This document shows positions 6,389 through 39,833 of a stretch of DNA of 44,487 nt, in pieces. Both the position numbers and the translations under genes were made by a program. Source of the DNA: Acinetobacter phage NJ01; the sequence record OQ221563.1; one strand, given 5' to 3'. Position 1 is the stretch's first letter. Every line of letters starts with the position of its first letter. Below the pieces are notes generated by a model. The model was not told the origin of the DNA and did not search any database. It was given only the letters and a program-made list of their open reading frames with translations.

Positions 6389-7527
6389 TTCAACATTTCC
6401 GGGCTAATGGTTAAGCGCGCTACTTCTCCGTAGTTGGCGCTATAGGTGATGACGTTGGCACTGCGTCCGCTCATCCAGCCGCCACGGCTGGCGTAGGCGT
6501 CTTTCGCTGCGAGCGTCCGGTGCTGTTCAACAATCATGTTGCGGGATTCAACAATCTTCTGGTGGTGCAAATGACCTACGTGCGCGTAGCTGTATTCGCT
6601 CGACCCGAACGCCTGTCTGAATTTAGCGATCATAACCTGCTCGATAGCATCGAATCGCGCTTTATGCCCGTGGTGGAAAAACAGCGTGGTCTTACCGTGC
6701 TGCACCATTTTGTAGACGTCCGGTGACGTGTCCACATCGACGCGCGGCTCGTTCTCATACAGAGTATTAAACATCTCAGCAAGCCAAATCATACCCGATT
6801 CGTCATGATTACCCTGGACGATTAGCAGTTTTACTTTGTGGTGTTTTTGCAGCGCCAGGTCTACCACGTTGCGCACCATGCGAATCATATAGCGGACCAA
6901 CTTCTGGTATCGTGTGTCGGCGTCCAGTACGTGCCCGCTGGCAGGGGTGACGGCATCGAGGCTATCAAAGTGCGCCATATCGCCGAGGATATTGATCACG
7001 GCAGTGCCTGCGTCTGGCGCGCGTGCGAAGGCTTCGACAAACCAGCGGTAGAACAGGTCTTCGGCGATCGCCATATCCCAGTCTTCGCCAGTCTCCTCGC
7101 CCCATGCCAACATACCCAGGTGGAAGTCTGACACGGTGTACAGGTTAAGCAAGTCGAGCGCCTGGATCGGGACTGGCGGGGCTTTTACTGGCGCTGCCGG
7201 TGTTATTTCGCTGTTCATACCCTCGACAACAGCGCGCATGGCTTCGAGTTGGCGCTCCTTGTCCTGCTCAGTGATGACCCACGACATAACCTCTTCGCCA
7301 TTGCCGCGCACCAGGGCCGATACGCGCTTAACCCCAAAACCATCGGCAACGCGCTTACGGATCACGGCATCATTGCCGTGACCAACCCCCTTTTTCGACA
7401 AGCGGGCTTTCCGCATATAGACATTGCGCAGGGCGATCCCGTATTTCTTCGCAATCTCTTTAACCGTAGTCCCTGCCTGAATTTCTGCGATCAATTGCTC
7501 ATCGGTAATTTTAGTTTGCGGGTGCAT
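6385..7527 (-). CDS. N-terminal HTH domain fused to a calcineurin-like metallophosphoesterase
   Basis: N-terminal TVKEIAKKYGIALRNVYMRKARL (HTH). Phosphoesterase motifs DFHLG, GDMAHFD, GNHD, HHGH and GHLHH. Confidence 0.75.
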   Translation of the reverse strand: MHPQTKITDEQLIAEIQAGTTVKEIAKKYGIALRNVYMRKARLSKKGVGHGNDAVIRKRVADGFGVKRVSALVRGNGEEVMSWVITEQDKERQLEAMRAVVEGMNSEITPAAPVKAPPVPIQALDLLNLYTVSDFHLGMLAWGEETGEDWDMAIAEDLFYRWFVEAFARAPDAGTAVINILGDMAHFDSLDAVTPASGHVLDADTRYQKLVRYMIRMVRNVVDLALQKHHKVKLLIVQGNHDESGMIWLAEMFNTLYENEPRVDVDTSPDVYKMVQHGKTTLFFHHGHKARFDAIEQVMIAKFRQAFGSSEYSYAHVGHLHHQKIVESRNMIVEQHRTLAAKDAYASRGGWMSGRSANVITYSANYGEVARLTISPEMLK

Positions 7528-10491: not shown

Positions 10492-10818
10492 TTATTTCGC
10501 AAGCTGGGCAAATAGCTCGCGCTGTGCTTTAATCCGGGCGACGTTTGTCACTGCCGTCTCACCGATCCCGAAGCGATACGCCAGGCGCTCACGGGAGAAT
10601 GCAAGCGCGTAGTCCTGGATGGCGTTCGCCAGTGGCTGGATCTCTTCCATCGTGTCGAAGCGGCGCTCAAGCATAACGGCGATGGCCCGCTGCATCACCC
10701 GCACAACGGCCCACGCTGCCGATAGTCTTTCTACTGCTTCCACCCCCTCACCGGCGAACTCCGCCGCTTCTTGTGCCTTCGCCATAGCCATTGCGTAATT
10801 CCAGATTAATTTTTTCAT
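10492..10818 (-). CDS. Hypothetical protein (108 aa), first gene of the leftward operon
   Basis: GAGGAC RBS; promoter TTGCAT-17-TATATT directly upstream (10847-10875, minus strand). Confidence 0.55.
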   Translation of the reverse strand: MKKLIWNYAMAMAKAQEAAEFAGEGVEAVERLSAAWAVVRVMQRAIAVMLERRFDTMEEIQPLANAIQDYALAFSRERLAYRFGIGETAVTNVARIKAQRELFAQLAK

Positions 10819-10846
10819 CGTTCAGTCCTCATGTTGGTGTGCAACC

Positions 10847-10875
10847 AATATAGCGTGGTGCTGGCACGAATGCAA
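10847..10875 (-). promoter_or_regulatory. sigma70-like promoter (TTGCAT, 17-bp spacer, TATATT) with two ATTGGTTGCA elements
   Basis: rc of 10847-10852 is TATATT and rc of 10870-10875 is TTGCAT. TGCAACCAA occurs on the plus strand at 10840-10848 and 10871-10879. Confidence 0.5.
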
Positions 10876-11035
10876 CCAATATTAATCATGCGCATGAAAA
10901 AGTTGATCGCTATCTGCTGTAACTGCAAACTGCATTTTTCACACCTCATTCTGCAACTCGCATTGGTTGCCTAGTTCAGTGGCGACCGCTATTTCCAATA
11001 TGCTGCCGTGTGTTATGCAATCCCCGGATTTTATG

Positions 11036-11205
11036 CAGTCTCAGACGAGGGGGGTGACAGACCCCCCGTCTAGTCTGAAAGACTGGGGTTTGTCCCGCCT
11101 GTCCCGCTCCTCGCCAGGCCGCGTCATCCGGGGCGGGACAGGGGTGCTGTCCCGCTTTGTCCCGCCTCTGGTCTGTCCCGCTTTCTGTCCCGTTTGGTTT
11201 ATGCA
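11036..11205. repeat. Iteron-rich non-coding element, copy A: GC hairpin AGACGAGGGGG..CCCCCGTCT, then six direct TGTCCCGC(C/T) repeats plus one inverted copy, ending in AT-rich TTTATGCA
   Basis: TGTCCCGC at about 11091, 11100, 11148, 11158, 11174 and 11186; inverted GCGGGACA at 11133. About 85-90% identical to 38843-39009. Confidence 0.8.
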
Positions 11206-11278
11206 GTTTTATTGCATAACTATTCACTATATTCACACCACACGGCAACCAATGCGTCCGGCTAAAAACACTCAAAAT

Positions 11279-11363
11279 GGCAACCAATGCGCGCAAAATT
11301 TAGTCTTTTAGCGATATGGGAATTCCCATATTGGCAACCAATGCGCGCAAAATTTAATCTTTC
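11279..11363. repeat. Two 31-bp direct repeats flanking a perfect 18-bp palindrome, overlapping the primase-helicase stop codon
   Basis: GGCAACCAATGCGCGCAAAATTTAGTCTTTT at 11279-11309 and GGCAACCAATGCGCGCAAAATTTAATCTTTC at 11333-11363 (1 mismatch). ATATGGGAATTCCCATAT at 11314-11331. Confidence 0.8.
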
Positions 11364-13624
11364 AGGTCATCATCGGTCGCCGAAAGCGTTATTGGGATAT
11401 CCGATTTGATGACTAAATTCGACGACCCATATATGGCCCCGGTGTGCGGGTCTGTATAAAAACCAATCACGCCGCGCTCGACCATATCGTCGATTGCCTT
11501 CGTCGAAGTGCCTCCCTTCGCGAGTCCCGCCTGGCGGACAATTGCCGATTTACTGAATCCAGTGTGGTTAGGGTTATCTTCCATCAGTTTTTCCAGTGCC
11601 GCATAAAGCACTTTCTCTTTTTCATTGCGCGGTCCGGCGGCGTTTTCTTCCTTAACTGCTGCTTTGCCCGCTGCCTTCGCCTGTTCGATGGCGAACGGTG
11701 CCAGGGCGACCGGTACGAGGTACAGAGTCTCGTCGCGTGGCGTGGATGCAATCGGCTTGACGTCCCAACCGGCAACCACATCGCCGAAGTCTGGCCCGGT
11801 GCTGGTTGACTGGTGGGCTTCGAACGCTTCGGACTTGCGGAGATCCACCTTAACCTTGCACTTGAGCAGGACGAAGCCACGCGGCGCTTGCTTGATGCCG
11901 TTACGTGATTTTTCGTGGTACAGGTTAAGTTGTCCCGGCTGGTTGTCGTCCGGCTGTTCCAGGAAGAAAGCGGAATCGACAGCGCCATGAAGCGCACCGG
12001 ACCCACGGGGAGATCTGCTGCCGTTTGCACCTTTCGCCGGGTGGTGGATGACGCCCGCACTGCCGCCTGTATTTTCCGCAATGGCCTTCAGCGCTTTGAC
12101 CACTTCGCCCATATCGCTGGCGTTGTTCTCGTCGAACGGTTTTGCATCGGCGGACCGCAGCGCAACAGTCTGGTTGAGTGAGTCGAACGCCACCAGGCCA
12201 ACCGGCTCGCCGTTAGCGGTGCGGTTGATGAAGCTGATAACTTCACGCAAGCCTGATTTGCTGGTGATATCCCAGCCGCGTGATTGCAGGTCAATAATGT
12301 GCAGCTTGTCCAGGTCGTGCTCATATTTGATCTGCAATGCTTCCTTACGCTGGTTGGAGGCTTCGCCACCTTCCGCGTCGAAATAGAAGTTGTGGCACTG
12401 GACGACCTTCGCCCCACCAAACGGAATACCGGCAGATACTGAAGCCATTTGCCCCAGCACATAGAAAGACTTACCAATGTTCGACTCACCGGCGAGATAC
12501 CAGGTCGATTTGAAGTTGACCAGGCCTTCTATGATCGGGTCGTGCTTACTGAACAGTGCAACCGGTTCGTTATCCAGGTCAGCGTCGGAACATCCGCCGT
12601 ATTCTTCTCCGTCGCCAACTGCATCAACAATATGTTCATATAAGGATTCGACTTCCTCGTCGTCCAGCCCTGGGAGGATGGCGGCGATTTGCTTACGTGA
12701 CATGTTGTGCGGCTCGACGTTCAGGTGGTCCGGTATCCCGATAAGACGTAGCGCCAGGTGCTGGTGTCTATTTAGCTCCGAGCAACACTCGTTGCCGGTG
12801 TGCATACACTTGAAACGGATCTCGCCATCCTTGACCATGATGGCCGTCGACCCTTCGCCGCTGTGCAGATGTTCGTTCGGGCACGGCACTTCATAACCGC
12901 GACCGGAAGATAACTCCTCGAATCCTGCCTGGAAGCACCAGTCCAGAATGCCGTCGGCCACGGCGTCGTCGCCCTGGGTCAGTTCGCGGCGTACTTCCTC
13001 TTTATCCACCCCCAGCTTATCCGCCAGGCGAAGCAGACGACGGACGCGGGCACGTTTGCCGTAATGACACTTTATTACAGACTGCTGGTGTGGCAGGTAC
13101 ATCAGGCGGTTTGTGTCTTTCGTGCAATCGTCGAAGTCCACATCTGACAGACCAAGTTGGTGTAATAGCGCATACTGGACACGGCCCAGGTCTTCAGCCG
13201 GGACAGGCTTGTCAGTGAGTACCAGGAAGCGAGCGCAACGCGTTCCGCCTTTCAGCGGGTGGCGGTCGCCGGTGGTTGTGTGGAATACGTGCTCCAGCCC
13301 CGCGTCGATGAAAGCCTTACGGCAGCGGCGTAGGGTGCGGGTGTCGGTGCGGTCAATATCGAAGAACAGGATCGAGCGGTCCACCGCACTAGTCTTACGA
13401 CGTAAGCCGTCACTGGTATACGCCACGATGCCATCGGCCTTACGCTTGCGGCGTGCATACTCGGCTTTATCTTCCGTCTTGTTGATATGCACCGAGGAGA
13501 TTTCTTTCGCATCATTGATAAATTCGAAAAATTCATCGGTGGTCATCTGGCAGTTTTCCGCCCTGGCTTTTTCGCCTTTTTTAGCGGGTCTTGTTACGGC
13601 GAATTTAATTAAACTCATGGTCAT
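11354..13624 (-). CDS. Bifunctional DNA primase/helicase: AEP prim-pol-like N-terminus, Cys/His zinc-ribbon region, RecA/DnaB-like ATPase, C-terminal winged-helix-like region
   Basis: N-terminal FFDIDRTD-type AEP motif. Zinc-binding cluster CPNEHLHSGEGS...CMHTGNEC. Walker A GESNIGKSFY and Walker B LVAFDSL. C-terminal ...STKAIDDMVERGVIGF resembles a wH DNA-binding domain. Confidence 0.85.
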   Translation of the reverse strand: MTMSLIKFAVTRPAKKGEKARAENCQMTTDEFFEFINDAKEISSVHINKTEDKAEYARRKRKADGIVAYTSDGLRRKTSAVDRSILFFDIDRTDTRTLRRCRKAFIDAGLEHVFHTTTGDRHPLKGGTRCARFLVLTDKPVPAEDLGRVQYALLHQLGLSDVDFDDCTKDTNRLMYLPHQQSVIKCHYGKRARVRRLLRLADKLGVDKEEVRRELTQGDDAVADGILDWCFQAGFEELSSGRGYEVPCPNEHLHSGEGSTAIMVKDGEIRFKCMHTGNECCSELNRHQHLALRLIGIPDHLNVEPHNMSRKQIAAILPGLDDEEVESLYEHIVDAVGDGEEYGGCSDADLDNEPVALFSKHDPIIEGLVNFKSTWYLAGESNIGKSFYVLGQMASVSAGIPFGGAKVVQCHNFYFDAEGGEASNQRKEALQIKYEHDLDKLHIIDLQSRGWDITSKSGLREVISFINRTANGEPVGLVAFDSLNQTVALRSADAKPFDENNASDMGEVVKALKAIAENTGGSAGVIHHPAKGANGSRSPRGSGALHGAVDSAFFLEQPDDNQPGQLNLYHEKSRNGIKQAPRGFVLLKCKVKVDLRKSEAFEAHQSTSTGPDFGDVVAGWDVKPIASTPRDETLYLVPVALAPFAIEQAKAAGKAAVKEENAAGPRNEKEKVLYAALEKLMEDNPNHTGFSKSAIVRQAGLAKGGTSTKAIDDMVERGVIGFYTDPHTGAIYGSSNLVIKSDIPITLSATDDDLKD

Positions 13625-13628
13625 AGCC

Positions 13629-13958
13629 TTATTTGGAAGTTTTATTATTGCGTACCCAGGAGCGCACTGTGCTCTGATTAATCCCAGTCAACTCGGCAAT
13701 CATCGCCCATGACTTTCCCTCCTCGCGCAAACGGATAACCTGTTTTTTGTATTCTTCCATTTCTTCATTGTGCTTTTGCAGCTTGCTGGCTGCCGTACCG
13801 TTGAGTAATTCCAGCTTCGCGCGCAATTCTTTTTCGGTAAGTCGCAGACGTTCGATTTCGAATAACACCGCACCCACGGCATCGGTATAAGCCCACGACC
13901 GGCTTGTTTCACTGCTAACAGTCTTCGTTAACATTTCGATTGCGTCGTTTATATTCAT
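13629..13958 (-). CDS. Small DNA-binding protein with C-terminal HTH (109 aa)
   Basis: Coiled-coil middle; C-terminal GKSWAMIAELTGINQSTVRSWV is HTH-like. First gene of the minus-strand primase operon. Confidence 0.6.
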   Translation of the reverse strand: MNINDAIEMLTKTVSSETSRSWAYTDAVGAVLFEIERLRLTEKELRAKLELLNGTAASKLQKHNEEMEEYKKQVIRLREEGKSWAMIAELTGINQSTVRSWVRNNKTSK

Positions 13959-17114: not shown

Positions 17115-17900
17115 ATGGCTAAAGTCAACCTGAAAAATGTGCGCGTATGTTTCCTTAAAATTTGGGAACGCGATACCCCTAAACAGGATGGTCAAAAACC
17201 GGCATACCGTGCAGTGATTCTTCTTGATAAAGAAGATCCGCAGGTGGACAAAGTGGAAGCGGCAGCGCGCGCAGTGCTCACCGACAAGCTGAAATCCGAG
17301 AAGAACGCCGATAAGTGGATGGACCGCCACTACGCCCAGGATTCTAAGGAATGCGCAGTTCGCGACGGTGACGAGCGCGACGAAGTAACCGAAGAATTCG
17401 AAGGCATGTTGTACATCAACGCCAAATCGTTCAAACAGCCGATCATTCAAACGTCACTCGGCGAGAAGCAGACGGAACAAGGTCTGACCGTAGAAGGCGA
17501 CGAGATCGAAGGCCAGGAGATCTACTCCGGTTGTTATTGCAATGTGTCCCTGGATATTTGGGCGTGGAACAATACCAACGGCAAGGGACTCGGTGCTGGT
17601 CTTTTGGGTCTGCGCTTCCGTGATGACGGCGAAGCCTTCGGCGGTGGCGGATCTTCTTGCTCAGACGAAGACCTTGGCGACGATGACGAAGATGAAAGCC
17701 CGCGCAAGTCCAAAAAGTCAAAACGTCGTGATGACGATGACGAAGACGACAAGCCGCGCAAGTCCAAAAAATCCAAGCGCCGCGATGACGACGATGATGA
17801 CGAAGACGAGAAACCTCGTAAACGTCGTAAGCCGCGCGACGATGAAGATGAGGACGAAGACGACGAAGACGAAGCACCACGTAAACGTCGCCGCCGTTAA
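17115..17900 (+). CDS. Single-stranded DNA-binding protein (T7 gp2.5/DUF2815-like) with a long alternating basic/acidic C-terminal tail
   Basis: GAGGAA RBS; OB-fold-like N-terminal ~190 aa. C-terminal repeats PRKSKKSKRRDDDDEDD x3 ending ...DEAPRKRRRR. Co-located with the Cas4-like nuclease, as is typical for DUF2800/DUF2815 pairs. Confidence 0.6.
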   Translation: MAKVNLKNVRVCFLKIWERDTPKQDGQKPAYRAVILLDKEDPQVDKVEAAARAVLTDKLKSEKNADKWMDRHYAQDSKECAVRDGDERDEVTEEFEGMLYINAKSFKQPIIQTSLGEKQTEQGLTVEGDEIEGQEIYSGCYCNVSLDIWAWNNTNGKGLGAGLLGLRFRDDGEAFGGGGSSCSDEDLGDDDEDESPRKSKKSKRRDDDDEDDKPRKSKKSKRRDDDDDDEDEKPRKRRKPRDDEDEDEDDEDEAPRKRRRR

Positions 17901-23626: not shown

Positions 23627-23631
23627 ATTGG

Positions 23632-23660
23632 TTGCATAACCGTATTGGTTGCATTATATT
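23632..23660 (+). promoter_or_regulatory. sigma70-like promoter (TTGCAT, 17-bp spacer, TATATT) built from two direct ATTGGTTGCAT elements
   Basis: ATTGGTTGCAT at 23627-23637 supplies the -35; a second copy at 23644-23654 abuts the -10 TATATT at 23655-23660. Confidence 0.55.
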
Positions 23661-25092: not shown

Positions 25093-25559
25093 AATTACTA
25101 ATTTGTGATCTGGATGGCGTTATTAATGGATCAAGCGATGCGCGCGCCGACCTGGTGCCGGGGATAAAAACTAAATCCACCTTCTGGGCGAAGTGGCACA
25201 AGGCGCACGTCCGCGAAGACCTGAACATGGATATGCTGCCGCTACTGCGCATGTATAAAGAGCAAGGCTTCGAGATCGCGTATCTAACCAACCGGCAGCG
25301 AGAATGCTGGGACACCACCGCTGAGCAATTGGAGGTCTTCCCGGTAGGCCGGTTGTTTATGCGCCACATGCTGGACGACACCCCGCCGCCAGAGTTTAAG
25401 GCGTGCGCCGTGTTCAAAATGGTCTGCTATGCGGACGTGTCGGAACTGGTCATCATTGAGGACTGCCCGAAGAACATCGCGGCAATTCGTCGGGCGTGTG
25501 GTGATTTGGTCCCGAAAATTTACGCAATAAACGTTGCAAAATTCACTTGCAACCAATAG
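25089..25559 (+). CDS. HAD-superfamily phosphatase (5'(3')-deoxyribonucleotidase / PNK-phosphatase-like)
   Basis: N-terminal HAD motif I LLICDLDGVI; overall size and layout of NT5C-type nucleotidases. Confidence 0.5.
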   Translation: MKLLICDLDGVINGSSDARADLVPGIKTKSTFWAKWHKAHVREDLNMDMLPLLRMYKEQGFEIAYLTNRQRECWDTTAEQLEVFPVGRLFMRHMLDDTPPPEFKACAVFKMVCYADVSELVIIEDCPKNIAAIRRACGDLVPKIYAINVAKFTCNQ

Positions 25560-25576
25560 GTTGGTTGCACTATAGT
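25547..25576 (+). promoter_or_regulatory. sigma70-like promoter (TTGCAA, 18-bp spacer, TATAGT) whose spacer is a perfect inverted repeat TGCAACCAA-tagg-TTGGTTGCA
   Basis: Palindrome at 25548-25569. -35 TTGCAA at 25547-25552 and -10 TATAGT at 25571-25576. Confidence 0.55.
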
Positions 25577-26827: not shown

Positions 26828-28618
26828 CTACGCACTACTCGTGGCTGTTTCCAATCCTGTTTCGGGCATTTGCACCCGGACAGAAATGTAGGTGCTCGGT
26901 GGAATATCCACCGGGTCGCCGTCTTCGATACCATCCATAATATTTCTCGCGAACGCAGGAGCGTTAGTATGCGTTCGATGGTAAGTGCGAATCTCAATAC
27001 TACCATCATTCAATACCGCATAATCCAGCCACAACAAAGGTTGCTTGTTTACATCCACCGGTATCTCAAAGCCGCCATTGACCCCACCCCAGGACGCGTC
27101 GGAATTGAGGCCCAGGCAACCCGATATGACATAAACACCTTTGGACACCCGTGTTACAGAGCAACCTTTGGACTCGTCGTTAAACTCTGCGGTTCCGTCG
27201 CCTTTGATTTTCACAATAGGTGATGCGATTTTGATAAAACCGTTGCTGTCAACAGTGGTGTTTAGGTCACGAATTAAGAAATCCCGCCAGTTAGTGATAA
27301 GCGCTGGGTTGGACGTACGTTGCCGATAGCGCGGGGCTTGATTTGTTATAGTTGAAAAACCAATTTGTGACCAGTTACCTGTACTGCCAGGGCCACCACC
27401 ACCCTCCGCAATTGTCATAATCTCGGCGTAGGTGTAAGGGCCACCGTTGCCCCCAGGCCACTGTGACACATCAGCGCTATAAAAGCCAATGCCCGTGTCA
27501 AGTTCCGGCGAAGCGTAAAGTGTGTTGATAGTGTGGTCGTAGTTCATTGCACGGAGACTACGACACGCCGTAAATGTTGTAGTGCCTCCTGTGCCGCCAC
27601 TCTGAACAGGTAACGCCGCGCGTTCATGTGTAGAGCTGTTATAGTAACCCCAGTCGCTAGACGCCACAAAGAATGTGTACGCGCCACTAGGTTCTAAAAT
27701 TGTGGTGTCAATGGTAGACTGCTTGAAGCGGTCGAGATCAAGATTGGTGCGTGCTTCCGCAACATCAGCAACGTCACTAAGGTTGCTGGCTTTTGCCAGA
27801 AATCTCGACGGGTCGATCTCATTCTTGAATTGTTCAGCCTCGTCGCGAATAACGCCGGTGTCAGTCTTAATCTGCTCAGTCTGGTCCTTGATGGCCTGCG
27901 TATCCGTCTTAATCTGGTCCGTCTGCGTCTTGATGATATTGGTGGCGTCGTGGATAGCCTGTGTTTCAGTCTTGATCTGGTCCGTCTGCGTCTTGATGGC
28001 CTGTGTTTCAGTCTTGATCTGGTCCGTCTGCGTCTTTATGGTATTTGTTGCGTCGTGGATAGCCTGTGTTTCAGTCTTGATCTGGTCGGTGGCATCGCGG
28101 ATGCCCGCGGTCGTGTTCTTGATGCCTTCGGCCTCGTTGCGAAATCCTTGCGCGGCAGCCTCCGACGCAGCGGCTTGTTGTTGCAGGTTGCGCATCTCAA
28201 CGGGGTCGATTTCCTTCATCAATTGCGACAGGTAGCCCCATGACATACCCTGCATAACTTGCCCGTTCGGCAGCGTTACCGTGATTTCTTCAGCGTCTCC
28301 GAAGATCGCACGCCAGTTGTTTTCGTCCGCGAGCATCAAGCGCAACGCTTTCTGTGCCTGTACTGTTACGCCCATCGTTGCCAGCGACATGGTATCGCGC
28401 TTAACGCCATCCCACGCAAGGCCTGCTGCCGTCGGGCCGTCGAACGGCAGCACCAGCGTAAGCGCGGTATCGCTTTCGACGGACGCGATCGCAACAGTGT
28501 AAGGGACTTGCCCAACCACCAGCGATAAGAAGTCGCCTGCATTAAACGCGGTAAACGTCGTGCCTACCCCGACAACCGCCTTGCTGTTATTCGTTACGGA
28601 TAGTGTACCCGCTGCCAT
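26828..28618 (-). CDS. Side tail fibre protein with a long coiled-coil pseudo-heptad repeat region
   Basis: 596 aa. Repeats of TQTDQIKTETQAIHDATNTIK and variants (residues ~175-260) give DNA tandem repeats at ~27830-28120. C-terminal Gly/Trp-rich distal domain. Confidence 0.8.
   Translation of the reverse strand: MAAGTLSVTNNSKAVVGVGTTFTAFNAGDFLSLVVGQVPYTVAIASVESDTALTLVLPFDGPTAAGLAWDGVKRDTMSLATMGVTVQAQKALRLMLADENNWRAIFGDAEEITVTLPNGQVMQGMSWGYLSQLMKEIDPVEMRNLQQQAAASEAAAQGFRNEAEGIKNTTAGIRDATDQIKTETQAIHDATNTIKTQTDQIKTETQAIKTQTDQIKTETQAIHDATNIIKTQTDQIKTDTQAIKDQTEQIKTDTGVIRDEAEQFKNEIDPSRFLAKASNLSDVADVAEARTNLDLDRFKQSTIDTTILEPSGAYTFFVASSDWGYYNSSTHERAALPVQSGGTGGTTTFTACRSLRAMNYDHTINTLYASPELDTGIGFYSADVSQWPGGNGGPYTYAEIMTIAEGGGGPGSTGNWSQIGFSTITNQAPRYRQRTSNPALITNWRDFLIRDLNTTVDSNGFIKIASPIVKIKGDGTAEFNDESKGCSVTRVSKGVYVISGCLGLNSDASWGGVNGGFEIPVDVNKQPLLWLDYAVLNDGSIEIRTYHRTHTNAPAFARNIMDGIEDGDPVDIPPSTYISVRVQMPETGLETATSSA
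27830..28120. repeat. Intragenic tandem DNA repeats (period ~42/63 bp) encoding the tail-fibre coiled-coil
   Basis: Repeated ctggtccgtctgcgtcttgatgg and cctgtgtttcagtcttgatctgg units. Confidence 0.7.
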
Positions 28619-36130: not shown

Positions 36131-38773
36131 TCATCGTTTGTAAAGTACACCACCCGGTTTCGTCGCTTTCACGATCTCAGCCTTCACCGCCTCGGTGATT
36201 TGCTTGCCGAACGCCTGCGCGGTACGGGGGTCCGGCCCGCTGACACTGGTATCCGTTTTACCGGTCCCAGTGTAAACGTTAGTCGTCACGACCATACCAC
36301 CGCCTGCGCCAGACGCGGCAACGCCCAGTTTACCGTCCGGCCCGCGCTTCAGTGGCATGATGGCCTCGGGTCCAGCCTCACCCATCAATCCTGCGCCCTT
36401 AGCGAACGCCTGGACGCCATAACTGAAAAAGGTAGGCTGGCTTACCACTTTACCCGAATAGGCCGCGAGATTGCCTCCTGCGTACGCTCCGCCGTCCGCA
36501 TTCTTAGTGAGGCCCGAGAAGATAGCGCCGAACAATCCGTTTTTTCCGCCGTCGCCACCGAAAGCGCTAACGATGGACTTGAATGCCTGCGATGTAGCCA
36601 GCTTGATTAATTCGCTCAGGATGGACTTAACCATATCCTTTGCGTTCAGCTTGCCAGTCTCGAAAAACTCGTTCATCGTGTCCTGCATAGCGCCGAACGT
36701 GAATTTTGTGAGTGACGTCATCTGCGTATAGCCGTTACCCATTTCATCCACGCTATCCTTAAGCCCACGGCTGAATCCATCCCATAGCGAGGCGTTAGCA
36801 CCGGTCTGTGCTTCCTGCACTTCGCGCAGTTTAGACACCGCCAGATCAATATCGGTATCGCTAGCGCCCACCCGCTTAAGGCGGTCAATCAGCTGCAATT
36901 CTTCACGCAGGTTAGCCGCTTCGCGAGTGGAAAGCGCATAGCCCGCCGCGGTGGCTTTTAGCTCGGCGTTCTGGTTCTTAACGAAGGCGTCGATCTGCGC
37001 GTGCGCCTTGACCTGTTTCTCTTTCGCGTCCAGCAATTTGGCTTCTTCGACGATCTGCTCGCGCACTTCCTTCACGCGTCCGAATTCTGCCATCTGCTGC
37101 TTTTCCGCTGCCGTTAGCGCCCTTTCTTTGCTTGCGGCGATTAACTGCTCATTATCCGCGATCAGCTTGTTTAAGGCCGCTTGAGCGCGTTGCGTGCGGG
37201 TCTGCGCCGATGCGTTGGCTTCGATCTGCTTGCCTGATTCCCGAAGCTGTGCCAGTTCGCTCCGTGCGACTTCCAGCATTTTCATACCGGCATCCACGCG
37301 AACAGCCGCAGCCTTCTTCGGGGCCGGGTCTTTGTAACGCTCGTTTACCTGCTTAACCGCCTCAGCAAGCTCTTTCTCGTCAATAACGCCGCGCTTATTC
37401 AGCAAATTGAGGCGGGCGATCTCGTCTGCGCGCTTCTTAGCGTTGGTGGCGTATTCCTTCTCGAACGCGGCGCGGTCACGGGCGGTGCGGTTGGCCTCCT
37501 CGTTCGCCTTCGCGGATTCGTCCGCGGCGCGGGCGTTGTCTCGCTCTGCGCGGTTACGCAGGGTGAGCGATGCCACTACTTTTTCCTGTGCGACCAGTTC
37601 GCTGTAAAGCATGTTAATACGTGCTTTCTGCGCTTCGGTCATCACTCCACCGGCAGCGTTTACCGCTTTCATCTCGGCATAGTAAGCCGTGGTCATGCGC
37701 TGGAGTGATTCGCGCGCTTTCATCTCGGACTCATTGGAGGACTGCGCGCGGCCCACATCCAGGATGGCATCCCACATCGATTTAGCTGCCGATGTGACGA
37801 CGTTCATAGACCGCTCAAGCGTACCCATGTTCGCCTTGATCTCATTGGTCATGCTGGTGAACGACGCAGCGGCTGTTTTGTTAGCCAACGCAACTGCGTC
37901 TGTCTCACGACCCGCATCGACCAGCGACTGTACCTGCTGGACCTGCGCTTCGTTTACGACGTGATATTTATCCGCCAGTGCGCGCAAGCCGCCTACCGGG
38001 TCGGTTGACAGCTTCGCCACCGCCGCGACCACATCCTCGATCGGCTGGCTGGACACCTTCGCAAAGTCATTCACTACCTTAGCCAATGCGCCGAAGTCAC
38101 CACCCGCTTTCACACCCGCCGCCGCCAGCGCCTGGATTGTGTCACGCGTCTTGCGAAATGACCCTCCCATGCGCTCGGCGTTCTCAGACAGCACAAGGAT
38201 CTGGTTTGCTGTGAGGCCTGAAATATTACCGGACAGCGCCAGCGTCTTATTAAGCGCCGCCACCTGGTTCTCTGCGCGTGTCGTAATTGCCACCCCTACG
38301 CCGAGCGTTGCCGTTAATGCTGAAAGGCCGATCCCTACGGGGCCGAGAAAGCCCGCAACATATCGCAGCGTGTTTCCCAGTCCGCCAAACGCCCCAGTAA
38401 GCTGTGGTAGCTGCTGAAGCATAACGCGGTGGACCGGCATACCCATCTCGAGCGTTACCGCGATATCCTGTAACTGGAATGCGGCGTTCCGCGATGCGAA
38501 TCCCAGGTTTTTGGTCGACATGCCTAATCGGCTGGCTAGCCGCTCCTGTTTCGTCATGCCGTCGGCGGCGCGCTGCGATTCAGTCGCTAACTTTTCCATT
38601 CCGCCCGCGGCGTCGCCAGTAACCTTTTTCGACTTGCCGAGGGTGTCGTTTAATTTTTTGACTTTCTGTTCTGTGTTCTCGGATTTCTGCGCAAATGTAT
38701 CCAGCACAGTATTAGCCGTTTTAATTTGCGCGACGTCCGCCTTGAGCGTGATGCCCGCTGCCTGATCTGCCAT
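36131..38773 (-). CDS. Tail tape measure protein
   Basis: 880 aa, alpha-helical and Ala/Gln/Lys-rich, Gly-rich C-terminus. AAGGGGGA RBS. Confidence 0.9.
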   Translation of the reverse strand: MADQAAGITLKADVAQIKTANTVLDTFAQKSENTEQKVKKLNDTLGKSKKVTGDAAGGMEKLATESQRAADGMTKQERLASRLGMSTKNLGFASRNAAFQLQDIAVTLEMGMPVHRVMLQQLPQLTGAFGGLGNTLRYVAGFLGPVGIGLSALTATLGVGVAITTRAENQVAALNKTLALSGNISGLTANQILVLSENAERMGGSFRKTRDTIQALAAAGVKAGGDFGALAKVVNDFAKVSSQPIEDVVAAVAKLSTDPVGGLRALADKYHVVNEAQVQQVQSLVDAGRETDAVALANKTAAASFTSMTNEIKANMGTLERSMNVVTSAAKSMWDAILDVGRAQSSNESEMKARESLQRMTTAYYAEMKAVNAAGGVMTEAQKARINMLYSELVAQEKVVASLTLRNRAERDNARAADESAKANEEANRTARDRAAFEKEYATNAKKRADEIARLNLLNKRGVIDEKELAEAVKQVNERYKDPAPKKAAAVRVDAGMKMLEVARSELAQLRESGKQIEANASAQTRTQRAQAALNKLIADNEQLIAASKERALTAAEKQQMAEFGRVKEVREQIVEEAKLLDAKEKQVKAHAQIDAFVKNQNAELKATAAGYALSTREAANLREELQLIDRLKRVGASDTDIDLAVSKLREVQEAQTGANASLWDGFSRGLKDSVDEMGNGYTQMTSLTKFTFGAMQDTMNEFFETGKLNAKDMVKSILSELIKLATSQAFKSIVSAFGGDGGKNGLFGAIFSGLTKNADGGAYAGGNLAAYSGKVVSQPTFFSYGVQAFAKGAGLMGEAGPEAIMPLKRGPDGKLGVAASGAGGGMVVTTNVYTGTGKTDTSVSGPDPRTAQAFGKQITEAVKAEIVKATKPGGVLYKR

Positions 38774-38842
38774 TATGCAGTCCCCCTTTTTATGCAGTTG
38801 CCGTCGGTCATTGTATCAGCGAATTTAAAACAAACCTTATTC

Positions 38843-39009
38843 AGTCTCAGACGAGGGGGACCATTGACCCCCGTCTAGTCTGAAAGACTGGGCTTTGTCC
38901 CGCCTGTCCCGATCGGCTAAACCCCGCGGCAGCACTGGCGGGGACGGGGTGCTGTCCCGCTTTGTCCCGCCCAATTCTGTCCCGCTTTTTGTCCCGTTTG
39001 TTTTATGCA
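38843..39009. repeat. Iteron-rich non-coding element, copy B (homologous to 11036-11205): hairpin AGACGAGGGGG..CCCCCGTCT plus TGTCCCGC repeats
   Basis: About 85-90% identical to copy A, including the hairpin, AGTCTGAAAGACTGG and the terminal GTCCCGTTTG(G)TTTTATGCA. Confidence 0.8.
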
Positions 39010-39156
39010 CGAAAATCGAATAGATATTCACATTTTTGGGGTGGGACAGATCGGGACAGCACCCCTGTCCCGCTTTTAATTTATGCAATGAAAGTGAGTA
39101 TATATGCGGTTTAGTGGTGGCGGGACAAAACGGGACGTCCCGCCTGTCCCGCTCCG
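39010..39156. repeat. Extension of copy B: further direct and inverted GTCCCGC/GCGGGAC repeats interspersed with AT-rich segments and TTATGCA motifs
   Basis: GGGACAG at ~39042 and ~39052, TGTCCCGC at 39066, GCGGGACAA at 39119, CGGGACG at 39131, GTCCCGCC at 39137, TGTCCCGC at 39146. AT-rich tttatgcaatgaaagtgagtatatatgc. Confidence 0.75.
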
Positions 39157-39833
39157 TTATGCGGGGTTCTGCCGCGCCATTTCATCCAGCGCAACGCGTT
39201 CCATTAGCTTAATATCTTTAAACGCACGCTGCGCGTTTTCGATGCCGTGCATCTTAAACAGCCATTCCAGTACGCCGTAGTCGATGCCGTATGCGCCACC
39301 GAATCCGGTGCGCCATTGCGTGGAGCAATCTGTGAATACAGCGACTACCTTCGCGTTGTCGGGCCACAGCGCAACCGGCGGGCAAACATCTTCAGGTGTC
39401 GCGCCCCATAAACTCGCGGCTAAATCTTCGGATGGTGGCGGCGGGCCATAAAAGCGCCGCGCCGCCTCAATTAGTTTTTTTCACGCAACCCCATCAGTTC
39501 GAGATAGTACGACGTATGGAACACGCCGAACGCGCGCGGGTAGTTGACCACCAGGCGGCGGACGTTCTCCGCGTTAAATTCGTCCGGCAGATTCCAGCCT
39601 TCTGCGACGTGCATGATGGCCTCGACCATAACATTAAAGCCGTCCGGGTCATTGTCGTCATATTCCGACAACTTGCGCTCAGTATCCTGCATGGTCTGCG
39701 AAAACTCGTCGATCGGACGGTGGCGCACGGTAAACGTCATTTTGCCCGGTTCGTTTTCGCCGGGGCGCGGGATTTCAATCGGTAGCTTAAAAGTCGGCTT
39801 AGGGTCAAGTGTAAAGAGTGGTGCTTTAGCCAT
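39157..39833 (-). CDS. Tail assembly chaperone G-T fusion produced by programmed -1 frameshift at A_AAA_AAC (~39474-39480)
   Basis: The -1 frame is open for ~100 codons from the slippery heptamer to the TAA at ~39157. A GC-rich stem (GGCGGCG...CGCCGCC) starts ~6 nt downstream of the heptamer. Conserved G/G-T position between the major tail and tape-measure genes. Confidence 0.6.
39471..39833 (-). CDS. Tail assembly chaperone (lambda gpG-like)
   Basis: GGAGAAG RBS; ATG at 39833 (MAKAPLFTLDPK...). Ends ...LREKN* with a GAA_AAA_AAC slippery run at the stop. Confidence 0.7.
   Translation of the reverse strand: MAKAPLFTLDPKPTFKLPIEIPRPGENEPGKMTFTVRHRPIDEFSQTMQDTERKLSEYDDNDPDGFNVMVEAIMHVAEGWNLPDEFNAENVRRLVVNYPRAFGVFHTSYYLELMGLREKN

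Follow-up and report, generated by a model that had tools for sequence, protein, structure and literature searches.

In P4, the alpha protein is reported to carry primase, helicase and a C-terminal origin-binding domain in one polypeptide. The structure of that domain is 1KA8, and the octamer iterons of P4 (TGTTCACC) occur in direct and inverted orientation in two clusters, at ori and in the cis replication region crr. RSF1010 (IncQ) uses the helicase RepA, the primase RepB' and the iteron-binding initiator RepC, and its oriV contains 20-bp iterons, G+C-rich and A+T-rich segments and the hairpin priming signals ssiA and ssiB. In Bacillus phage SPP1, G38P binds oriL and oriR and recruits a helicase loader and a DnaB-type helicase. 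In staphylococcal pathogenicity islands (SaPIs) the initiator (Rep/PriRep) is itself the helicase, fused to a primase in SaPI5; its C-terminal winged helix reads short repeats, 6–12 of these iterons lie immediately downstream of the rep open reading frame (ORF), no separate loader is used and the origin consists of an A+T-rich centre with oppositely oriented iterons on either side (PMC9371898). ORF904 of pRN1 unites a prim-pol and an SF3 helicase with a winged helix, and an essential 100-nt stem-loop, kept in structure and not in sequence, lies just 3' of its own gene; the same layout has been proposed for Bordetella phage BIP-1 (PMC4234260). The locus described here lies in the 44,487-nt sequence of Acinetobacter phage NJ01 (OQ221563.1; the whole stretch is referred to as the window), on the 3' side of a gene for a primase-helicase with an AAA_25 motor. 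An array of the 8-mer TGTCCCGC, a hairpin/palindrome block and a 40-bp A+T box were found there which, judged from sequence comparison, probably form the cis-acting site (origin) at which the adjacent primase-helicase is assembled.

The 2 kb around this site (locus 1) matched 157 phage records at 90–95% identity, nearly all of them from members of the genus Dhillonvirus that infect Escherichia or Shigella (the HK578/JL1/SSL-2009a group), and the window is a Dhillonvirus genome. Locus 1 sits in a 535-bp gap (10819–11353). One edge of the gap is the stop codon (11354–11356) of the primase-helicase gene on the - strand; at the other edge, small - strand ORFs lead on to the genes for lysis, packaging, head and tail. 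The gap is non-coding. The gene and the core of locus 1 comprise the following features.

11354–13624, - strand: primase-helicase gene, 756 aa, candidate initiator and replicative helicase
11408–11623, - strand: C-terminal winged-helix domain, approximately residues 668–739, proposed iteron reader
11036–11088: hairpin/palindrome block, made up of CAGTCT, then the hairpin, then the palindrome AGTCTGAAAGACT at 11072–11084
11091–11193, + strand: iteron array, with exact direct TGTCCCGC at 11091, 11100, 11148, 11158 and 11174
11133–11140: inverted iteron
11186–11193: degenerate direct iteron TGTCCCGT
11193–11237: A+T-rich box, 75% A+T over 40 bp, candidate unwinding element

The 8-mer TGTCCCGC occurred 15 times in the window against 2.05 expected (sevenfold over), a count that was reached in none of 100 shuffles, and it was confined to two clusters, at 11091–11193 and 38896–39152. 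At locus 1 six direct and one inverted 8-mers lie 160–260 bp beyond the stop codon of the primase-helicase gene, mostly in direct orientation and at spacings of 9–16 bp. A sequence-only reading of the window had proposed an origin here from iterons, a GC hairpin, a small palindrome and A+T-rich DNA beside the helicase gene. The iterons (five exact direct, one degenerate direct and one inverted), the palindrome and the A+T-rich DNA after the iterons were all present as described; the hairpin is also present, but is not a simple 10-bp stem, as its arms (11043–11054 and 11062–11071, with the loop at 11055–11061) form six G–C pairs, a 2-nt bulge and then four further pairs. Folded as single-stranded DNA, the hairpin and the palindrome AGTCTGAAAGACT together gave −15.1 kcal/mol (z = −3.85). 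The A+T box lies at the 99.9th percentile of genome A+T, is one of only eight such 40-bp regions and includes the least stable 60-mer of the region. It contains an inverted repeat, TTATGCA-N7-TGCATAA, at 11199–11219. Genomes differ in the 7-nt loop of this repeat, which reads either GTTTTAT or the reverse complement ATAAAAC (the window was compared with L002, L013, L014, L020 and L022); the loop has been flipped between its short inverted arms.

Where the sequence-only reading had described a single locus, which is real, a second cluster at 38896–39152 had been overlooked. It belongs to a second copy of the module in the 387-bp gap (38774–39160) that separates the tail chaperone G/T frame from the tape-measure gene (36131–38773, - strand), with the following features.

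38849–38876: locus 2 hairpin
38877–38889: locus 2 palindrome
38896, 38905, 38953, 38963, 38978 and 38990: locus 2 iterons
38997–39037: locus 2 A+T box
39043–39073: locus 2 opposed iterons
39074–39113: locus 2 A+T box
39120–39152: locus 2 opposed iterons

Approximately 210 bp are common to the two loci, with the elements alike in order and orientation: TTATGCA comes first, then the hairpin and the identical 13-bp palindrome, a pair of iterons, a spacer, one inverted iteron, four further iterons and an A+T box that holds TTTATGCA...ATATTCAC. Beyond this common module, locus 2 adds two units of A+T boxes with iterons facing each other on either side. An A+T box comes after each of the three iteron sub-arrays; the genome has only eight such boxes in all, these three included. 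Locus 2 looks more like a complete origin than locus 1 does, and may be a second origin or a crr-like cis-acting partner site. The word TTATGCA has 15 copies in the window against about five expected, and eight of the 15 lie inside the two modules (11013, 11031, 11199, 11213, 38773, 38790, 39003 and 39081); one copy overlaps the start codon of the tape-measure gene. It was also seen in the corresponding regions of a Cornellvirus (contig L036, 17041) and of contig L160, despite their different iterons. DnaA boxes were represented by one perfect match (10935) and by near matches at 11229, 39003 and 39024, none of which is conserved among relatives.

The annotated phage collection contained 158 records with the module, at 333 places in all, and a pattern scan of viral contigs led to Dhillonvirus genomes, each with both loci; no decoy or prophage copy was found in 5,426 E. 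coli genomes. Conservation within the genus was assessed from 18 copies of locus 1 and 15 of locus 2 (33 in total). Exactly six direct TGTCCCG were present in 17 of the 18 locus-1 copies and the inverted GTCCCG in 16 of them. The 50-nt hairpin/palindrome block was essentially invariant in the 33 copies and its 7–8-nt loop had ten variants, with mean pairwise identities of 0.983 for the hairpin arms and 0.541 for the loop. This invariance, together with the palindromes that stand between opposed iterons elsewhere (see below), suggests that a cruciform or a single-strand hairpin is part of the origin structure.

The same block might instead act as RNA, in the processing, stability or anti-termination of a long leftward transcript, with the iterons secondary. 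Its invariant arms and free loop in 33 copies, its good folding and its position within a probably transcribed region would agree with this, which we nevertheless hold to be very improbable. The arms never vary, so that there are no compensatory changes and nothing speaks for structure over sequence, and no U-run was found at the block on either strand. Searches of the whole window against Rfam returned no family at gathering score, 10700–11450 giving only chance-level matches to eukaryotic microRNAs and snoRNAs, and a tRNA scan found none. An RNA would also leave the linkage of iterons to the helicase unexplained, and in other phages palindromes of unrelated sequence lie between the opposed iterons, which points to a DNA-level feature.

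The identity between locus 1 and locus 2 was 0.821 within a genome and 0.817 between genomes; compared between genomes, each locus was conserved (0.913 for locus 1 and 0.895 for locus 2). Gene conversion between the loci was considered and found unsupported, the within-genome identity being equal to that between genomes. The duplication is therefore old and was not homogenized by gene conversion, and both copies are under selection. These values bear on the idea that the module is a selfish or accidentally duplicated repeat, similar to a miniature inverted-repeat transposable element, or that it is coding, as annotated in JL1 (gp15) and PhiSTP1 (gp021). The two copies per genome and the hypothetical proteins that some records place over the array could be read in this way. 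In all 158 records, however, the two copies occupy the same pair of fixed sites, their divergence is old (0.82 between loci) with each locus conserved, and the module is absent from the E. coli genomes. In every relative between four and six frames run through the array uninterrupted, the ORF limits vary between genomes and 1-nt indels occur, all of which speaks against coding; the open frames are an effect of the composition of the G+C-rich array. JL1 'gp15' and PhiSTP1_021 are for these reasons likely mis-calls and the proteins annotated there probably artefacts. The array ORFs at 10976–11296 (- strand) and 10967–11311 (+ strand), and JL1 gp15, were rejected on the inconsistent limits and the indels, and the non-coding status assumed by the sequence-only reading was thereby borne out. 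The coding and selfish-repeat explanations, the least probable of those considered, are rejected.

The protein that would act at the array was characterized by profile and structure searches. Its only Pfam match was AAA_25 (residues 360–533, E = 2e-19), and it matched PHROG 3228 ('replicative helicase-primase'). The N-terminal 340 aa matched phrog_9765 ('DNA primase') weakly (E = 8e-7) and gave no Pfam match to a P4-family primase or an SF3 (D5-like) helicase at E-values up to 10. When the full-length AlphaFold2 model was submitted to Foldseek, the highest target TM-score (0.60–0.63) was obtained with RSF1010 RepA (1g8y/1olo/1nlf), and DnaB and RecA/Rad51 were matched too; the full-length matches were dominated by the RecA-fold core, and searches of the protein sequence and of the family profile against the PDB returned only marginal RepA matches. 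The helicase motor is a RecA-fold AAA_25 domain, closest to RSF1010 RepA, and not of the AAA+/SF3 type. The C-terminal domain was predicted as a winged helix in the structure model, as the sequence-only reading had supposed. After it comes a conserved acidic C-terminal tail (11357–11375, residues 750–756, consensus DEDLE), in which D753 is invariant and L754 nearly so. The tail recalls that of T7 gp4, which contacts its polymerase.

The linkage of heptamer arrays to this kind of helicase was examined outside the genus. IMG/VR was scanned for TGTCCCG-N1-9-TGTCCCG and all ORFs of the resulting loci were clustered by shared proteins. Many unrelated contigs were found to carry dense, irregular arrays of TGTCCCG/CGGGACA in both orientations, typically in the form [CGGGACA]n, a palindrome whose arms are G+C and whose centre is TTAA or TATA, and [TGTCCCG]n. 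The sole protein family shared near these arrays was an AAA_25 primase-helicase of 590–770 aa, at a median gene-to-array distance of 9 bp. With a hidden Markov model (HMM) of the family, 40 loci with at least four motifs were compared with 80 loci with a chance motif pair: a family gene was present in 17 of the 40, with the array always on its 3' side and within 64 bp in 15 cases, and in only two of the 80. In distant homologues the array begins 0–64 bp beyond the stop codon. The primase-helicase of the window matched the family HMM with E = 5e-34, and the identity in the helicase core was 25–31%.

An independent scan of bacterial genomes yielded six loci with a family gene, among them representatives of Hyphomicrobiales, Rhodobacterales, another alphaproteobacterium, Bacteriovoracaceae and Actinomycetota, all six with the array–palindrome–array layout at most 12 bp from the 3' end of the gene; most other TGTCCCG triplets in bacterial genomes have no relation to the phage arrays, being coding repeats or simple tandem ones. 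The primase modules of the family vary (Toprim_3 plus zinc ribbon, Prim-Pol or none recognized), as do the small helix–turn–helix (HTH) genes upstream of the family genes, so that the helicase plus its C-terminal part is the only constant partner of the array. The distant TGTCCCG-associated helicases share a C-terminal motif, W..FY...(K/R)KAFxRA...L...G(L/I). Irregular TGTCCCG/CGGGACA arrays with no recognizable AAA_25 gene in the 8 kb covered were also seen in two bacterial contigs (L211, 4320–4540; L242, 1230–1380), where they may serve another type of initiator.

Closer relatives showed other repeats in the same place. In the Cornellvirus PhiSTP1 the gene order is the same and the primase-helicase is 44% identical; its stop codon is directly followed by GGGGAGA in six direct copies and one inverted copy, and the GTGAATAGTTATGCA box, a homologue of the A+T box of locus 1, is present there as well. 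This GGGGAGA cluster is the only one of PhiSTP1, and the gap between its chaperone and tape-measure genes has no array. Three uncultured relatives (L159–L161; 46–49% identity) have a gene-free gap of 350–650 bp after the gene, each with repeats of its own in both orientations: TTGCGAGT in one, TCGCAA and GCGGCCAAC in another and GGGGATC/GATCCC and GCTGCCAAC in the third. Relatives carry GCGGCCAAC or GCTGCCAAC where the window has the promoter-associated motif GCAACCAAT (see below), and these GCxxCCAA(C/T) words look like lineage variants of the latter. That relatives of 44–49% identity keep a repeat-rich gap and change its repeats is the pattern expected of a co-evolving initiator and origin. 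The core of the proposed origin layout (iterons and an A+T element on the 3' side of the helicase gene) is strongly supported by comparison, because the same heptamer arrays follow AAA_25 genes in unrelated phages and bacterial contigs and because related genera have different repeats at the same position.

From these features, their conservation in two places, the array–helicase linkage and the winged-helix prediction we infer how binding, melting, loading and priming might proceed. The C-terminal winged helix would read the 8-bp iterons, and several protomers gathered there would assemble into a ring. The adjoining A+T box would melt, possibly aided by extrusion of the GC hairpin and palindrome, and the helicase would load itself with no separate loader. 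The N-terminal domain would then make the first primers for the phage DNA polymerase.

Further elements lie on either side of the core in the same gap, some of which the sequence-only reading had counted as parts of the origin.

11273–11311 and 11327–11365: 39-nt imperfect direct repeats, spacing 54
11244, 11279 and 11333, + strand: three GGCAACCAATGCG 13-mers, in the region 11244–11345
11314–11331: perfect 18-bp palindrome ATATGGGAATTCCCATAT
10841 and 10872, - strand: pair of GCAACCAAT, overlapping TTGCAT-N17-TATATT upstream of the next gene (start 10818)
10959–10971: GCAACCAAT copy in the opposite orientation
246–268, 7690, 10841, 10872, 14149, 20670, 23627–23652, 25549–25561 and 28635: example sites of GCAACCAAT (16 in total)

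The '31-bp direct repeats' of that reading exist, but they are imperfect (29 of 31 positions identical) and longer, extending to 39 nt at 90% identity; the second was correctly placed over the stop codon 11354–11356, and the 18-bp palindrome is perfect, as stated. The left-hand repeat duplicates the last codons and the stop codon of the primase-helicase gene. The palindrome ATATGGGAATTCCCATAT includes an EcoRI site and is carried by an insert between the two 39-nt repeats, which was present in only seven of 18 relatives; the number of GGCAACCAAT-like copies at locus 1 ranged from one to three per relative, and most relatives without the palindrome keep two. Each 31-bp repeat contains GCAACCAAT, which reads ATTGGTTGC on the sense strand and has 16 copies genome-wide against 0.43 expected (37-fold over), mostly intergenic and often in pairs over promoter-like TTGCAT-N17-TATATT or TATAGT. 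The 31-bp repeats and the palindrome are peripheral and do not belong to the origin core, contrary to what had been claimed, because the former carry this genome-wide promoter-associated motif and the latter occurs in only seven of 18 relatives; they represent transcription control or a variable insert.

The motif GCAACCAAT probably serves a phage regulator as its operator or forms part of a phage promoter consensus. The pair at 10841/10872 fails a consensus promoter scan, and its arrangement, TATATTGGTTGCACACCAACA-GAGGA-ATG, recurs at 247–300; by its sequence, it may be regarded as a promoter-like element. Just upstream of the primase-helicase gene (13629–13958, - strand), a 109-aa HTH protein (HTH_23 / sigma-70 region 4-like) is encoded, which is annotated as 'transposase' or 'Gam' in records and has an unrelated HTH_3 (Cro-like) gene in its place in relatives. 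It is a candidate binder of the GCAACCAAT sites.

The iteron arrays could likewise be sites for a transcription factor, forming activated or repressible promoters, or a terminator or anti-terminator, for the late genes at locus 1 and, at locus 2, for the genes of the tape measure and the tail. Relative to the - strand genes on either side, the two loci are oriented alike, their positions are plausible as transcription-unit boundaries, and GCAACCAAT is concentrated at locus 1. At locus 2 a conserved extended −10 element, TGATACAAT (38810–38818, - strand), precedes the tape-measure gene. It lies approximately 35 nt upstream of the start, is invariant in 15 relatives and is a possible internal promoter of the tail operon. 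In the divergent Dhillonvirus-like contig L030 a genuine intrinsic terminator (GGCCGGGTAATTCCGGCC plus a T run, on the gene strand, at ∼6610–6650) has been inserted just before locus 2, separating the chaperone gene from the iteron module; this implies a new start of transcription in that phage, either inside locus 2 or beyond it. In Kagunavirus, GTGAATAGT boxes lie in a clear promoter at the equivalent position. Against these observations, TGTCCCG arrays follow the 3' ends of AAA_25 genes in unrelated genomes whatever lies downstream and are absent from the other promoter-like sites of the window, consensus scans found no sigma-70 promoter or intrinsic terminator in either module, and the small HTH genes near the arrays differ between genomes. 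A transcription-factor role suits the iteron module, for which it appears unlikely, less well than the GCAACCAAT part of the gap; transcriptional control of the GCAACCAAT part is likely and may coexist with origin function.

Several observations weigh against the interpretation of the array as an origin. The region also lies at a transcription-unit boundary, and a transcriptional role for part of it is likely. The iterons of locus 1 are found on one side of the A+T box only, and within the genus the iteron positions are barely better kept than the spacers (0.907 against 0.854). The GC skew of the window tracks gene and transcription direction only and gives no origin signal. In Jerseyvirus and Kagunavirus (∼32% identity) no array follows the gene, and an antisense HTH gene and clear promoters are found instead at the equivalent position. 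About half of the array-bearing IMG/VR loci had no AAA_25 gene in the stretch examined; some of these arrays touch the end of the locus, and others are coding repeats or simple tandem ones. Between the Dhillonvirus and the distant helicases, the C-terminal domains showed no significant homology by HMM search or by hhalign (probability 1.7%). This allows for a different binder: the shared heptamer could reflect fold-level homology beyond the reach of sequence, convergence or another binding protein. Weighed together with the comparative evidence, these points leave assembly of the primase-helicase at the array as the probable function.

Two further sets of short repeats in the window are of the coding type: GACGAAGA/GATGACGA at 17664–17865, in a + strand ORF, and ATCAAGAC/GACCAGAT at 27736–28080, in a 596-aa - strand gene (26828–28618) that is probably a tail fibre gene.

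In literature searches by sequence string and by genus name, neither these repeats nor an origin for Dhillonvirus was found described, and the new elements are the second locus and the link between heptamer and helicase across phages. Dhillonvirus, a large genus whose members are virulent coliphages and which serves in screens of defence systems and as a candidate for biocontrol, has no defined origin. Escapers of HK578 from P2 OLD map to the helicase-primase gp46 and to the gp45–46 promoter; OLD binds hairpin-forming iterons at the lambda origin and hairpins at origins have been linked to OLD activation, while the origin of HK578 was left unlocated (bioRxiv 10.64898/2026.07.10.737580). The position of the escapers ties the helicase-primase to a replication-initiation signal, and the module with its invariant hairpin is the obvious candidate for the HK578 origin and a concrete target for the OLD question.

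The heptamer–AAA_25 link suggests a general rule for locating origins of this replicon type. As a tentative and rather doubtful generalization, TGTCCCG iterons flanking a palindrome after an AAA_25 primase-helicase gene might define an undescribed but widespread class of self-loading replicon, present in phages and integrated elements of many bacterial phyla and with interchangeable primase modules; the Dhillonviruses would be its two-site form (an initiator-side site and an opposed-iteron site in the tail operon), and the hairpins might be sensed by OLD or Lamassu. It is unusual for an origin-like module to stand between the genes for the tail chaperone and the tape measure, and this could reveal an ori/crr-like mechanism or a coupling of replication to late expression. 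In practical terms, the modules are candidates for origin-decoy resistance and for Dhillonvirus-based replicons.

A plasmid-type iteron origin (Rep_3/RepA/TrfA) is not indicated, as the iterons are of 8 bp and not 17–22 bp and there are no conserved DnaA boxes; no Rep_3-type gene was found near locus 1. The lambda-type arrangement, with iterons inside the initiator gene, also differs from that found here, the array lying outside the ORF in both Dhillonvirus and Cornellvirus. SPP1 is likewise a virulent siphovirus with two repeat clusters, one by the replication genes and one distant among the late genes, but it uses a separate origin-binding protein, G38P, and its repeats and proteins are unrelated to those of the phage. 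RSF1010 provides the closest solved helicase fold in RepA and an origin that similarly mixes iterons, G+C and A+T segments and hairpins; it requires three proteins and 20-bp iterons, whereas the phage would use one polypeptide and 8-bp iterons. pRN1 shares the combination of primase, helicase and winged helix in one protein and a cis element 3' of its gene. Its stem-loop has no iterons, whereas the phage element consists of a short GC hairpin, iterons and an A+T box and is associated with a helicase of another superfamily.

P4, to which the sequence-only reading had compared the locus, resembles it in having octamer iterons in two separate genome clusters (here 11091–11193 and 38896–39152, a layout conserved in the 158 records). 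The comparison holds for the proposed way of working, and is strengthened by the crr-like second locus, but not for membership: the protein of the window has no P4-family primase or SF3 (D5-like) helicase, its motor being of the RecA-fold/AAA_25 type and not that of P4 alpha. The SaPIs are similar in that the candidate phage initiator is a helicase with a predicted C-terminal winged helix and that six direct and one inverted iterons lie downstream of its gene. Locus 2 reproduces the SaPI layout of opposed iterons around an A+T box exactly (38997–39037 and 39074–39113), whereas the iterons of locus 1 are one-sided. The phage iterons are of 8 nt and those of SaPIs of 5–6 nt, and the phage adds an invariant GC hairpin and palindrome and carries the module twice, in a virulent tailed phage. 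The SaPI motor is AAA+ and SF3/MCM-like and that of the phage a RecA-fold AAA_25 domain, and membership in the SaPI and P4 families fails for this reason. The phage locus would work like the SaPI Rep–ori family but is not a member of it; if the proposed mechanism is correct, its helicase would stand beside the self-loading AAA+ helicases of SaPIs as their RecA-fold counterpart.

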